A DNA stretch of 18,567 nt from an uncultured Anaerolineales bacterium. Lineage in GTDB: Bacteria; Chloroflexota; Anaerolineae; CG2-30-64-16. The notes under the pieces are model-generated. The model ran no database searches. It saw nothing but the letters and a program-made list of their open reading frames with translations, and had not been told where the DNA came from. Position 1 is the first letter of the stretch; each line of letters opens with the position of its first letter. Where the stretch lies: the NCBI GenBank assembly GCA_964423545.1, contig CAYRFV010000092.1, positions 1-18,567 of the forward strand. The letters are read 5' to 3'. The position numbers and the translations under genes are program-made. Positions 2,714 through 9,326 of the stretch are shown here, piece after piece.

Positions 2714-3772
2714 ATGAACACCATGTTTGGCGCTTTCGTCATTGCACTGCTGCTGGGTGGGATGGTTGCGTTCTTGATCATTCTTGCCACCGGACGGAAC
2801 AACAAGCCCAACTACCAGTCGGCGACGCGTGTCGGACTGGTCGTGCTCCTGGTGGTTTTCGCGGCCAGCGCGCTGATGGATGCCTTCACGCAGGTGGAGG
2901 CCGGGTCGGTGGCCGTGGTCAAGCAGTTTGGTCAGGTGGTCGGCGTCTTCTACCCCGGCCTGAACCTGAAAATGCCGTTCATCCAGCAGACCGTGCCATA
3001 TCGAACGCAGGAGATCATCTACGAAACGAGCGAGGACCCCAAGACGAGCCAGGCCAACTACAAGGATATCGAGGTGGACACTGCCACGGCCGACGGCCAG
3101 CAGATCCGGGCGCGCTTCACGATCCGCTTCCGCATCGACCCTACTCGGGTGATTGAGATCGTCAACAACCTGGGCACCGAGCCTGAGGTGGTGGAAAAGG
3201 TGGTCAAAGCCACCAGCCGCGTCCACGTGCGCAACATTCTGAAGCAGCACTCGGCCACCGATCTCTATTCGGGCAACGTGGAGCGAGCCCAGGAGGAGAT
3301 CCGCCAGCGGCTGGATACCGAGTTCGGCCATGCCGGCCTGCAGCTCATCTTCTTCGGCCTGCGCTCGATTCACTTCGAGCCGGAGTATATCAAGGCCGTC
3401 GAACAGAAGCAGATCGAGAAAGAGAACATCACGACCAAGGAGAACCTGGCCAAGCAGGCCGAGTTCGAAAAGCAGCGCACGATCACGCAGGCGCAGGGCG
3501 ACGCAGAGCGCGAGAAGCTGCAGCGCATCGGCCAGGCCCAGGGTGAGGCGGAGGCCATTCGCGTGAAGGCCATCGCCGACGCCGAGGCGACCCGCATCAA
3601 GGCGCAGGCGCAGGCGGAAGCGAACAAGCTGATAGCCCAGAGCCTCGATCCCAACGTGATCAACTGGCAGGCGATCCAGCAGTGGAGCGGGCAATATCCG
3701 ACGGTGATGGGTGCGGGAGGGAGCTTCATCCTGCCCGGAGATCTGTTCAAAGCGCCGGCGCCAAGCAAGTAG
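2714..3772 (+). CDS. SPFH/band 7 domain membrane protein (HflC/flotillin-like) with a C-terminal Ala/Glu/Gln-rich coiled-coil repeat region
   Basis: AAGGAG lies 8 nt upstream of the ATG. The protein has an N-terminal transmembrane segment (FGAFVIALLLGGMVAFLIILA). The SPFH core includes 'AVVKQFGQVVGVFYPGLNLKMPFIQQ', 'YETSEDPKTSQANYKDIEVDTATADGQQIRARFTIRFRIDP' and 'FGLRSIHFEPEYIKAVEQKQ'. The C-terminus has repeats such as 'QAQGDAEREKLQRIGQAQGEAEAIRVKAIADAEATRIKAQAQAEA'. Confidence 0.85.
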   Translation: MNTMFGAFVIALLLGGMVAFLIILATGRNNKPNYQSATRVGLVVLLVVFAASALMDAFTQVEAGSVAVVKQFGQVVGVFYPGLNLKMPFIQQTVPYRTQEIIYETSEDPKTSQANYKDIEVDTATADGQQIRARFTIRFRIDPTRVIEIVNNLGTEPEVVEKVVKATSRVHVRNILKQHSATDLYSGNVERAQEEIRQRLDTEFGHAGLQLIFFGLRSIHFEPEYIKAVEQKQIEKENITTKENLAKQAEFEKQRTITQAQGDAEREKLQRIGQAQGEAEAIRVKAIADAEATRIKAQAQAEANKLIAQSLDPNVINWQAIQQWSGQYPTVMGAGGSFILPGDLFKAPAPSK

Positions 3773-3784
3773 TCTGCGAAACTC

Positions 3785-3813
3785 TTGACAATGACCTGCT
3801 AAAGTATTATACT
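3785..3813 (+). promoter_or_regulatory. near-consensus sigma70 promoter TTGACA-N17-TATACT upstream of the J-protein gene; the -10 overlaps the palindrome AGTATtATACT
   Basis: cTTGACAatgacctgctaaagtatTATACTcc is the best promoter match in the window and sits about 40 nt upstream of the start at 3857. Confidence 0.55.
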
Positions 3814-6655: not shown

Positions 6656-6818
6656 GCCGTCGTGTGTTGTGTCGTGTCGAGGCGTTTGCATTGCGTTAGA
6701 GGATTGCGCTTTGTAGCCGCTCCTACACCGAGGGCTTTGGCCCGGTGATATGGTAAGATTGAGCGAGCGGACCGATGAAGAAGCTCGTACGATGCAACTC
6801 AGATGAGGTTGGGTGGAT

Positions 6819-9326
6819 ATGATGCGATTTGATCGATTTACTGAACAAGCCCAGGAGGCAGCGCGGCGGGGCTACGAGGTGATGCAGCGATATGGCCACA
6901 ACCAGGTGGACGTGGAGCACTTCTTCCTCGCGATGCTCGAATTGCCCGAAGGGCTCGTGGTGGATATGCTGGAGCGCATGGGCGCGCCCATCGTCACCAT
7001 GAAGGAGCGGCTCAGTGACAACCTGCAACGCACTCCGCGCTCTGCCGGACCGGCCATGTATGCCCAGGCCGTCGCGCAGGTGTTCATCACCCCGCGGCTG
7101 AAACGGGTCGTCGACCAGGCCATGGAAGAGGCGCGGCTGCTGAAGGATGAATACGTTTCGACGGAGCATGTGCTGCTTGCCATCGTCGGAGAGCGCAATG
7201 GCTTTTCAGCCAACCTGCTGCGCGAGGCGCGCATCACGCGGGAGATGATCCTGGCAGCCATCGAAAAGGGCCGCGGCGGACAAAAGGCTTCGTCGCCCAC
7301 AGCCGAGAGCCGTTATCGCACCCTGGAGAAGTATGCGCGCGACCTGACTGCACTGGCGCGTGAGGGCAAGCTCGATCCGGTGATCGGCCGCGACGCCGAG
7401 ATTCTGCGCGTGATCCAGGTGCTCAGCCGGCGCACTAAGAACAACCCGGTGCTGATCGGCGAGGCGGGCGTTGGGAAGACCGCCATCGTCGAAGGACTGG
7501 CACAAAAGATCGTCACCGAAGACGTGCCAGAAATCCTGTTGGGCAAGCGGCTGATGAGCCTCGATCTGGGCGCCATGATTGCAGGTACACGTTTCCGCGG
7601 CGAATTCGAGGAGCGTCTGAAGACTTCCATCGAAGAGGTGCAGAAAGCAGGCGGCGAGATCATCCTCTTCATCGATGAGCTGCATACCGTCGTCGGCGCA
7701 GGTGGGGCGCAGGGCGCCATGGATGCCAGCAACATGCTCAAGCCGGCGCTTGCGCGCGGCGAGCTCCGCTGTATCGGCGCGACGACCCTCGACGAGTATC
7801 GCCAGCACATCGAGAAGGACAGCGCGCTCGAACGGCGATTTGCACCGATCTATGTCGATGAGCCGTCGGTGGAGGACGCCATCGAGATCCTGCGCGGCGT
7901 CCGCGATCGCTACGAAAAGCATCACCAGATTACCTACACCGACGACGCCTTGGTGAGCGCCGTCAAGCTGTCGCATCGTTATGTTACGGACCGCCGGCTG
8001 CCCGATAAGGCGATCGATCTGATGGACGAAGCGGGCTCGGCGTTGCGTGTGGCGCTCTACACCATGCCGGAGCCGCTGCGCATGGCCAAGAAGCGCCTAT
8101 CGGAACTGAAGACCGAAGAAGATGCAGCCTACAACGGCAACGACTACGCGCATGCCGCAGAGGTAAAAAGCGAGCGACTGAAGATCGCCAGCCAGTACGA
8201 CGCTGACCGCGACGCCTGGCGCAAGGCCAGCAGCCTGGATGACATCGTCGAGGCGTCGGATATCGCTACGGTCGTGGCGCGCTGGACCGGCATCCCGGTG
8301 AATACGATGTTGGAGGGGGAAACGGCCAAGCTGCTGCGCATGGAGGAGGAGCTGCATCGCCGCATTGTCGGCCAGGATGAGGCGATCAAGGCGGTCGCAG
8401 ACGCGCTGCGCCGGGCGCGCAGCGGGCTCAAGAATCCGAAGCGCCCCATCGGCAGCTTCATTTTCCTCGGCTCCAGCGGCGTAGGCAAGACCGAGCTGGC
8501 AAAAGCGCTCGCTGAATTCCTGTTCGACGATGAGGATGCACTGATCCGCATCGACATGAGCGAGTACCAGGAACGCCACACGGTCAGCCGCATGTTCGGG
8601 GCGCCGCCCGGCTATGTCGGTTATGACGAAGGCGGACAGCTCACCGAGGCCGTGCGCCGCCGGCCCTACCGGGTCATCCTCTTCGATGAGATCGAGAAGG
8701 CTCATCCGGAGGTGTGGAACTCCCTGCTGCAGATCATGGAAGATGGGCGACTCACCGACGGTCAGGGGCACGTGGTCGATTTCCGCAACACCGTGATCAT
8801 CATGACGTCGAATATCGGGACGAACTACGTAGGGAAGGGCGGCCCGATCGGTTTCCTGCGCAGCGATGATCTGAGCGCCCAGGAGCAGCGCCTGCGAGAG
8901 GATATCGACAGCGGACTGAAGAAGGCGTTCCGGCCGGAGTTCCTGAATCGCATCGACGAGATCATCATCTTCCACGGTCTGACACAAGAGCACATGATGC
9001 AGATCGTGGATATGCAGATGCGAGATGTGGCCAGCCGGTTGGCCGAGCACGGCGTCAAGATCGATCTGACCGACGCGGCGCGACGTTGGCTGGCCCAAGA
9101 GGGTTACGATCCGCAGTTCGGCGCGCGGCCCGTGCGCCGAACCCTGGAGCGCTGGGTCGAGAACCCGCTCGCGAAGCGGCTGCTTGCCGGCGACTTCCAG
9201 GAGGGCGACACGATCATCGTCGATGTGCGCGAGAACGAAGATGGCAAAGTCGCTCCGGTTTTCTCCGCCCGGCCGCCGGAGCCGATCGCCGTGGAGTTGC
9301 CGGTGAGCCAGAAGCTCGGCGCCTGA
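6819..9326 (+). CDS. clpC: ATP-dependent Clp protease ATP-binding subunit ClpC (class I AAA+ unfoldase; ClpC-type short M-domain with UVR-like motif; IGF ClpP-docking loop present)
   Basis: Start is set at the ATG at 6819 (MMRFDRFTE..., compare B. subtilis ClpC MMFGRFTE); the track's GTG at 6813 sits too close to the GAGG. Two Clp_N repeats are present. D1 Walker A is 'GEAGVGKT' (7461..7484) and Walker B is 'ILFIDELH'. A short middle domain of about 75 aa ('[41 protein letters not shown]') is ClpC-like, not ClpB-like. D2 Walker A is 'GSSGVGKT' (8469..8492), with '[11 protein letters not shown]' and the sensor 'GARPVRR'. A 'GGPIGFL' loop (IGF at 8847..8855) is present, as expected for ClpP-binding unfoldases and absent from ClpB. 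Confidence 0.9.

Follow-up and report, generated by a model that had tools for sequence, protein, structure and literature searches.

The contig CAYRFV010000092.1 of assembly GCA_964423545.1 originates from an uncultured Anaerolineales bacterium (Chloroflexota; Anaerolineae; CG2-30-64-16). All of its 18,567 nucleotides were analysed and are referred to below as the window; the G+C content is 60-67%. Positions 2714-9326 hold four consecutive open reading frames (ORFs) on the plus strand, coding for a SPFH protein, a J-domain protein (J-protein), a regulator of HspR type fused to an eRF1-like module, and the unfoldase ClpC. A preliminary description, made from the sequence letters, had listed the same four genes and read them as a candidate ribosome-associated quality control (RQC) pathway leading from stalled ribosomes to degradation under HspR control. 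Its inventory is correct: all four ORFs lie on the plus strand at these positions and Pfam upholds their domain identities. Our reading of the cluster is a different one, to which we give an even chance. It would be a heat-shock cluster composed of an HspR-autoregulated operon, dnaJ (class B) with hspR::baeRF10 (baeRF10 denoting the eRF1-like module or gene, after the Pfam family baeRF_family10), and a separately promoted clpC, in which a factor of the Balon family would park ribosomes under stress.

Family and fold of the eRF1-like module

The eRF1-like module scores 113 bits against Pfam family PF18854, whose cutoff is 27.1 bits. A profile made from an alignment of 24 homologues finds its best sequence match, over full length, in MSMEG_1130 (8v9j; E 7e-21), followed by eRF1 and aRF1 with E values of 1e-9 to 1e-4. 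The ranking by fold is similar: in a Foldseek search with an AlphaFold2 (AF2) model, MSMEG_1130 (8v9l/8v9j) is again the best match with template modelling (TM) scores of 0.74-0.75, chains of P. urativorans Balon and Rv2629 reach 0.67-0.70, and ribosome-bound eRF1 and aRF1 (4af1) 0.44-0.46. Since MSMEG_1130, its sequence rebuilt from the profile alignment, also matches PF18854 (124.6 bits), the module and a structurally proven hibernation factor belong to one Pfam family. MSMEG_1130 and Rv2629 bind to the ribosome's A site, and in vitro they inhibit translation without releasing the peptide (PMC10901736). Occupancy of the A site by the module is thus well supported by homology.

Neither the GGQ nor the NIKS motif is present in the module. 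The GGQ of eRF1 aligns to GGW (6035-6043), which is part of the loop KQGGWAAQ. In the Anaerolineae alignments the two glycines, H155, Q163 and R167 (numbering of the 363-residue protein; His310, Gln318 and Arg322 of the fusion) and four cysteines are invariant, and the residue following the glycines is tryptophan in most sequences and leucine or isoleucine in a few. The invariant glutamine is placed four residues after the glycines, one residue later than in GGxSQ. Most of the more distant representatives, down to about 25% identity, retain the pattern H-[KD]-Q-G-G-W-[SA]-[QA]; GG is predominant among them, not universal. The four cysteines form a zinc ribbon (CxxC...CPYC, 6461-6472 and 6503-6514) in the C-domain. 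At this position MSMEG_1130 has a degenerate insert, and it carries AGQ instead of GGW.

Gene neighbourhood of the eRF1-like gene

Neighbourhoods were scanned in one genome per species, which gave 79 loci, scored by tblastn with the window proteins. The main Anaerolineae set consists of 31 loci with an eRF1-like gene of 58-79% identity to that of the window. In all 31, dnaJ immediately precedes the eRF1-like gene or hspR, and clpC lies directly downstream of the eRF1-like gene in each of the 29 loci with sequence there. Seven loci of the set have hspR between these two genes, dnaJ and the eRF1-like one, and in the other 24 dnaJ abuts the eRF1-like gene; altogether the order dnaJ, hspR is seen in the window and 11 relatives.

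A second Anaerolineae group, with 32-39% identity, has the order two hsp20 genes, dnaJ, htrA (optional), hspR, baeRF10, clpB and clpC (optional), with groEL upstream; some of its loci hold just htrA followed by baeRF10. Other Chloroflexota show trx-baeRF10-dnaK with dnaK-grpE on the opposite strand, or grpE-baeRF10, and ftsH is also found among the baeRF10 neighbours in distant members of the phylum. Because flanking by dnaJ and clpC is universal in the main set and chaperone genes accompany baeRF10 even in distant Chloroflexota, linkage to the heat-shock and proteostasis genes is supported. The association with chaperone and protease genes claimed in the preliminary description therefore stands: an occurrence in unrelated contexts, which it had named as the finding that would speak against it, was not encountered in the Anaerolineae.

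Outside the phylum the company is different. In 27 loci of Acidobacteriaceae/Terriglobia type (L051-L077), a match of HPF type lies directly upstream of baeRF10 in every case and a match to sigma region 4 in 25; the sole such ORF scanned with Pfam (L053:6904-7932) codes for a single S30AE::sigma70_r4 protein directly upstream of baeRF10. A Syntrophomonas locus carries a Usp gene downstream of the baeRF10 homologue, and the other outgroup loci are without HPF, sigma region 4 or Usp. The linkage to chaperone and protease genes is, judging from these gene orders, strongly conserved but lineage-specific, and the outgroup contexts with HPF and Usp point to hibernation or stress.

The HspR::eRF1-like fusion

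The fusion is one ORF of 518 codons (5099-6655, plus strand), in which a winged helix-turn-helix domain of MerR/HspR type covers residues 13-79 and baeRF_family10 is matched by residues 261-394. The best regulator match in NCBIfam is the HspR equivalog NF047375, and the HspR part is 62-87% identical to stand-alone or fused hspR products of close relatives. In the AF2 model (mean predicted local distance difference test, pLDDT, 79) the HspR part is folded (residues 10-122), with helices between residues 15 and 67 and a 52-residue helix at 71-122; a disordered linker (122-154, pLDDT below 50) leads to the three-domain eRF1-like module, which is modelled with confidence.

Its origin can be traced at locus L001 (79% identity), where a gap of 93 nt separates hspR (117 codons) from the eRF1-like gene. 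In the DNA alignment L001 has TAG where the window reads through, and the AGGAG...ATGATG block is unchanged between fused and unfused loci. The fusion thus arose through loss of the hspR stop codon. As the internal ribosome binding site and ATG are kept, both the fusion of about 57 kDa and the free 363-residue factor are probably made.

A homologue search returned 226 matches; of the 120 listed, two are fused, namely the window protein and a cluster at 83% identity. The other listed homologues stand alone, nearly all with 363 residues and starting at the Met-Met pair encoded at 5564. None of the 150 best-scoring matches from a library of 1.84 billion representatives had a matched HspR part. 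The sister cluster at 83% identity comprises at least eight full-length fused proteins of 517-520 residues from separate assemblies of JGI and ENA, so an assembly error is not the source of the fusion. An 85-kb contig that carries one member repeats the gene order of the window (aminotransferase, LysM, SPFH, DnaJ, fusion, ClpC). Three fused variants differ by linker indels, all in frame. An artefact of sequencing or assembly was rejected on both counts, the separate assemblies and the in-frame indels. By the comparison of these sequences, the fusion is genuine, young and rare, and confined to one small clade.

Two related loci on ENA contigs, L087 and L088 (ERZ25039459, ERZ25039503), have the Band_7, DnaJ and Indigoidine_A genes split into pieces, which suggests frameshift noise of long-read assemblies; the seemingly unfused 363-residue members of the fused 90% cluster may accordingly be artefacts. 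A further protein, P0121 (408 residues), has N-terminal 210 residues 82% identical to the window baeRF10 module, followed by sigma-70 regions 2-4; a gene call that is chimeric or frameshifted is the probable explanation.

Fusions of baeRF10 to anti-sigma domains

HspR is not the only partner of the module, which other Chloroflexota join to anti-sigma domains. In at least five clusters at 50% identity (P0150, P0156, P0200, P0201 and P0212), an N-terminal anti-sigma domain (Pfam zf-HC2) is fused to baeRF10, and three of these clusters have the HxxxCxxC motif of ZAS proteins. A gene for an ECF sigma factor lies immediately upstream in two of the three loci examined, L083 and L085, and is lacking in L086. 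In L083 (fusion 5001-6446) the ECF sigma gene extends over the start of the fusion, and hsp20, doxX, ftsH, dnaJ and a hspR-like gene follow; L085 (fusion 1977-3356) has the order dnaJ, hspR, ECF sigma, anti-sigma::baeRF10. The eRF1-like module has thus become attached, in independent events, to two kinds of stress transcription regulators that are unrelated to each other, in either case within heat-shock clusters. The HPF::sigma-region-4 ORF that adjoins baeRF10 in Acidobacteriaceae, which again combines a domain of a ribosome factor with one of a transcription factor, may belong here too. Sensing of the signal is normally the task of the C-terminal domain in anti-sigma factors. The literature searched contained no description of fusions between anti-sigma and eRF1 domains, and nothing relevant on HspR in Chloroflexi.

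Promoter and candidate operator of dnaJ

Upstream of dnaJ, all Anaerolineae loci carry a near-consensus promoter, cTTGACA-N17-TATACT. In loci with hspR it is overlapped by a sequence resembling the HspR-associated inverted repeat (HAIR): CTTGACA-N7-RCTAAAG is found at the dnaJ promoter of all 12 loci with hspR and in none of the 24 without it. In the former (G/A)CTAAAGT is an invariant part of the promoter spacer and the 7-nt spacer of the candidate operator varies; in the latter the promoter spacers are GC-rich and variable. There is one copy per locus, always at the dnaJ promoter. The canonical HAIR (CTTGAGT-N7-ACTCAAG, up to three mismatches) has no match in the window, and no second HAIR-like site occurs near clpC or SPFH in the window or in the 11 other loci with hspR.

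From this co-occurrence we infer that dnaJ-hspR::baeRF10 forms an HspR-autoregulated operon with a putative operator. The control by HspR that had been proposed for the whole cluster is hence retained in part: the candidate site at the dnaJ promoter tracks hspR, but clpC has no operator of HspR type.

In a distant group of Anaerolineae with hspR, an 18-bp perfect palindrome, TTGATAACATGTTATCAA, is located immediately upstream of the -35 box of dnaJ (L041:5213-5230, variants in L040 and L042), again in one copy per locus. It may be the HspR operator of that clade. As a shared regulon motif TTGATAACATGTTATCAA was rejected, for only a single site exists.

Remaining genes of the cluster

Table 1. 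Positions of genes, gene parts and non-coding features in and around the four-gene cluster of the window
Feature	Position	Strand	Remarks
SPFH/Band-7 protein, membrane-anchored, 352 aa	2714..3772	+	Pfam Band_7, E 1.6e-24
HAIR-like candidate HspR operator CTTGACA-N7-GCTAAAG	3784..3804	+	overlaps dnaJ promoter
dnaJ promoter TTGACA-N17-TATACT	3785..3813	+	11/12 consensus positions
Class-B (CbpA-type) J-domain co-chaperone, 315 aa	3857..4804	+	J domain E 2.8e-29, DnaJ_C E 1.1e-45
dnaJ-hspR spacer, 294 nt	4805..5098		unusually long; about 15-100 nt in relatives
HspR part of fusion, residues 1-122	5099..5464	+	MerR-type winged helix-turn-helix and long dimerisation-type helix; MerR_1 E 1.1e-14
Linker of fusion, residues 123-155	5465..5563	+	translated former intergenic spacer; Shine-Dalgarno sequence AGGAG at 5551-5555, 8 nt before ATG ATG at 5564
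eRF1-like three-domain baeRF_family10 (Balon-family) module, 363 aa	5564..6655	+	PF18854, E 1.6e-32
Conserved non-coding region upstream of clpC	6684..6759	+	GTTTGCATTGCGTTAGAG at 6684-6701, TTTGTAGCCGCTCCTACAC at 6710-6728, extended -10-like TGGTAAGAT at 6751-6759
ClpC-type double-ring AAA+ unfoldase	6813..9326	+	likely true start ATG 6819
Inverted repeat	9336..9375		perfect, 14 nt with 12-nt loop, between the convergent stop codons of clpC and psuG; end of cluster

The SPFH protein (Table 1) scores 32.4 bits on the HflC equivalog (cutoff 134.4) and 19.6 bits on that of HflK (cutoff 159.4), and is established as a generic Band_7 member only. Its gene precedes dnaJ in 10 of 32 related loci, and also in L087-L089. 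Adjacency to the cluster, as described earlier, is real, but the attachment is loose and a strong promoter separates the gene from dnaJ; it is probably a loosely associated neighbour forming a separate transcription unit.

The J-protein has its HPD motif at residues 33-35 (3953-3961), a G/F-rich stretch and a DnaJ_C domain at residues 147-293. Because only a single cysteine is present, it lacks the zinc finger and has the architecture of class B, or CbpA type. The earlier designation as CbpA-type holds for this architecture, but not in the sense of a CbpA orthologue by curated score, since PRK10266 (the CbpA equivalog) gives 222 bits against a cutoff of 403; no cbpM-like gene lies downstream of the J-protein gene. 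In the spacer between dnaJ and hspR, there is no match to a promoter or terminator, the RNA is no more stable than shuffled sequences (z -0.52), and BLASTN against all fetched loci returned only self matches. This spacer is possibly a lineage-specific insertion.

ClpC contains the domains Clp_N, AAA, AAA_lid_9, AAA_2 and D2-small, with Walker A motifs at 7458-7481 and 8469-8492 and Walker B motifs present. The top NCBIfam match is ClpB, an identity that was rejected: residues 3-808 are collinear in one stretch with 1-800 of B. subtilis ClpC (3j3t, E 4e-270), matches to ClpB structures are split at the M-domain, and an IGF loop is present (8847-8855). In a gap-free alignment of this D2 loop, residues P-I-G-F (678-681) fall on the ClpP-docking L-G-F of the ClpC1-type chain 8xon (its deposited name is 'NDP-hexose 4-ketoreductase'), and T. 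thermophilus ClpB has an 8-residue deletion at this position. ClpC with a loop for docking of ClpP, as first described, is confirmed by this collinearity and loop alignment. Neither a ClpP partner nor the adaptors MecA and McsB are encoded in the 18.6-kb window.

The region upstream of clpC contains blocks of the form GTTTGCNTTNNGTTAGAG, then TTTG(G/T)AGCNGCTCNTACRC, then TGnTAnnnT, common to about a dozen Anaerolineae loci with and without hspR, which may represent an operator or promoter. The clpC leader has no HAIR-like site, no Rfam family and no fold more stable than shuffled sequences (z -0.78), and BLASTN of the spacer against all fetched loci gave only self matches. The clpC gene is thus syntenic but probably separately promoted, and control by HspR is not supported, though read-through from the operon may occur. 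Many loci without hspR (L012-L034) have a long conserved hairpin, CAACCCGTAG...CTACGGGTTG, shortly ahead of the clpC start codon, at a distance of about 20-90 nt (for example L017:9267-9353). The window lacks this hairpin, which could be a leader structure such as an attenuator or a thermometer.

Discussion

Balon-type factors have recently been recognised as a third family of bacterial hibernation factors. We regard it as about evenly balanced whether the cluster acts in the following way. Proteotoxic stress would relieve repression by HspR at the operator overlapping the dnaJ promoter, and the J-protein and the A-site factor would then be produced together. The factor, by homology to its characterised relatives, would park ribosomes, so that fewer new unfolded chains appear and idle ribosomes are protected, and the Hsp70 system and ClpC(P) would meanwhile clear damaged proteins. 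The gene order and the fusion indicate ribosome control induced by stress, not a demonstrated RQC pathway. A route from stalled ribosomes to degradation, as postulated in the preliminary description, is not supported: hibernation factors are the closest characterised relatives of the module, GGW stands in place of GGQ, the window contains no RQC hallmark gene, and clpC is not visibly part of the HspR regulon. The RQC annotation of the locus is corrected here as unsupported.

A number of observations speak against the proposed parking of ribosomes under HspR control. Identity of the module to MSMEG_1130 is 22-23%, and the NCBIfam equivalogs of hibernation factors are matched far below their thresholds (MSMEG_1130 89.6/480, Rv2629 67.1/320, AOC03_06830 29/330 bits), which by sequence makes it a distant relative of those factors, not an equivalog. 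Unlike Balon, it has kept the GG loop and an intact zinc ribbon, which could be compatible with insertion into the peptidyl-transferase centre and with catalysis. The S30AE gene is absent from the Anaerolineae loci. On the side of regulation, the HspR equivalog is scored below its cutoff (88.5 versus 105 bits), the candidate operator matches HAIR CTTGAGT-N7-ACTCAAG, an actinobacterial consensus, in 10 of 14 positions, and the 12 loci that bear it are one clade.

Retention of the glycine loop leads to a rival explanation, in which the eRF1-like protein is a rescue factor similar to Vms1 or ArfB that frees chains from heat-stalled ribosomes, to be refolded or degraded by the J-protein with Hsp70 and by ClpC-ClpP. 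Because the GG loop is invariant in Anaerolineae, the protein may still act as a hydrolase; the whole loop H-K-Q-G-G-W-A-A-Q is strongly constrained, with an invariant glutamine one turn later. In bacterial release factors the side chain of the GGQ glutamine is largely dispensable for hydrolysis, and the glycines and the backbone matter. The neighbours are protein-quality-control genes and not HPF, and the NCBI name of some homologues is 'Vms1/Ankzf1 family peptidyl-tRNA hydrolase'. Pfam family acVLRF1 is matched weakly (30.4 bits), beneath the far stronger match to family 10, and family 10 was picked out by Burroughs and Aravind as possibly catalytic (PMC6514570). However, tryptophan at the position of the canonical glutamine prevails across the family, whose sole characterised members are non-hydrolytic hibernation factors (PMC10901736). 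Among the annotated ORFs of the window no RqcH/NFACT, ArfB, SmpB or ClpP was found, nor was a tmRNA gene found in it, and outgroup homologues adjoin HPF or Usp. Taken together, rescue of stalled chains appears unlikely to us. The fusions invite another idea, that baeRF10 is a ribosome-docking sensor or effector repeatedly wired to stress regulators, HspR in the window and anti-sigma domains of ZAS or non-zinc type elsewhere: by docking on ribosomes with a free A site it would pull HspR or the anti-sigma domain off its target, A-site occupancy would tune heat-shock transcription, and a dimeric fusion might bridge two ribosomes and tether them as a pair. It is favoured by the fusion to two unrelated regulator classes, by the place of the L083 and L085 fusions beside ECF sigma genes within heat-shock clusters, by the HPF::sigma70_r4 ORF directly upstream of baeRF10 in Acidobacteriaceae, and by a flexible linker whose indels preserve the frame. 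Yet most of the family is unfused, and HspR fusions are as rare as two among the 120 homologues listed of 226 matches, with none in the 150 best representatives. The linker is merely translated spacer, the preserved internal Shine-Dalgarno sequence and ATG fit a recent, possibly neutral read-through, and no account of the anti-sigma fusions came up in the literature searched. Such coupling is in our opinion improbable, to about the same degree as rescue.

A further alternative takes the fusion for an error of sequencing or assembly, or for neutral read-through, and holds that the gene order carries no functional meaning. We consider it very improbable, and its artefact part is largely refuted. 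It could draw on the window protein being a single member on one contig, on the 363-residue members inside the fused 90% cluster and on the split genes of L087 and L088 as a sign of frameshift noise. Against it stand the fused proteins, at least eight, from independent assemblies, the sister lineage at 83% identity with identical synteny and the three in-frame linker variants; coincidence is opposed by synteny that is kept down to 58% identity and met again in the clade at 32-39%.

Anaerolineae, a whole bacterial class, keep a Balon-family factor inside an Hsp70/Clp heat-shock cluster, and some lineages fuse the factor to regulators of the heat-shock response. The locus raises the question of whether translation is parked, or nascent chains are released, during the bacterial heat-shock response, and whether the status of ribosomes feeds back on stress transcription.

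Comparison with known systems

With the Balon family (P. urativorans Balon, MSMEG_1130, Rv2629) the module shares the three-domain aeRF1-like fold and the lack of GGQ and NIKS. Stress operons, with Hsp20, DnaK and DnaJ among their products, are a frequent location of Balon-family genes (PMC10901736), and the present locus likewise belongs to a stress-response cluster of this type. It differs in the invariant GGW loop together with the four-cysteine zinc ribbon, in the HspR fusion and in the absence of a HPF/RaiA neighbour, which is typical of the family, not defining.

The dnaK-grpE-dnaJ-hspR operon of actinobacteria resembles the locus in the position of hspR directly 3' of dnaJ, the MerR-type repressor and a Clp/Hsp100 gene nearby, and as in the HspR/HAIR regulon a site resembling an inverted repeat overlaps the promoter of the operon, in keeping with autoregulation. 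In contrast to that operon, dnaK and grpE are not present in the window (nor are ftsH and S30AE, the HPF/RaiA domain), the operator is degenerate with 10 of 14 positions, the Hsp100 protein is ClpC instead of ClpB and its gene has no operator, and an eRF1-like gene follows hspR, here fused to it.

Vms1/ANKZF1 and VLRF-1 are also members of the aeRF1 superfamily, with a glycine loop, a glutamine close to it and a link to an AAA+ unfoldase, which is Cdc48 in their case and ClpC here. The window protein differs from them in its membership of clade baeRF-1 family 10, its full N and C domains and the tryptophan at the glutamine position; there is no NFACT/RqcH partner among the window ORFs, and hydrolase activity is not reported for family-10 members.

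Pairs of ZAS anti-sigma and ECF sigma factors are comparable insofar as baeRF10 holds the C-terminal 'sensor' position in L083 and L085, analogous to HspR::baeRF10. In the window, however, a sigma/anti-sigma pair is lacking and a DNA-binding repressor serves as the regulator; transfer of a signal via the eRF1-like domain is hypothetical.

Other features of the window

No family was matched in a Rfam scan of the whole window. The inverted repeat behind clpC (Table 1) has no T-run and was therefore not scored as a terminator, and none of the intergenic inverted repeats of the window was a candidate operator. Two long ORFs of 368 and 330 residues, at 15356-16462 (plus strand) and 17511-18503 (minus strand), are without Pfam match at E 1e-4. 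The gene converging with clpC (9352-10356, minus strand) is similar to psuG, coding for pseudouridine-5'-phosphate glycosidase (Indigoidine_A). Its Pfam model is matched in two stretches, separated by a segment of about 45 residues rich in glycine, serine, alanine and arginine, which suggests an in-frame insertion. Downstream of psuG a second, divergent SPFH/Band-7 gene lies at 10550-11578 on the minus strand, opposite to the cluster, and a similarly placed copy is found in L001 (8674-9657) and in L087.

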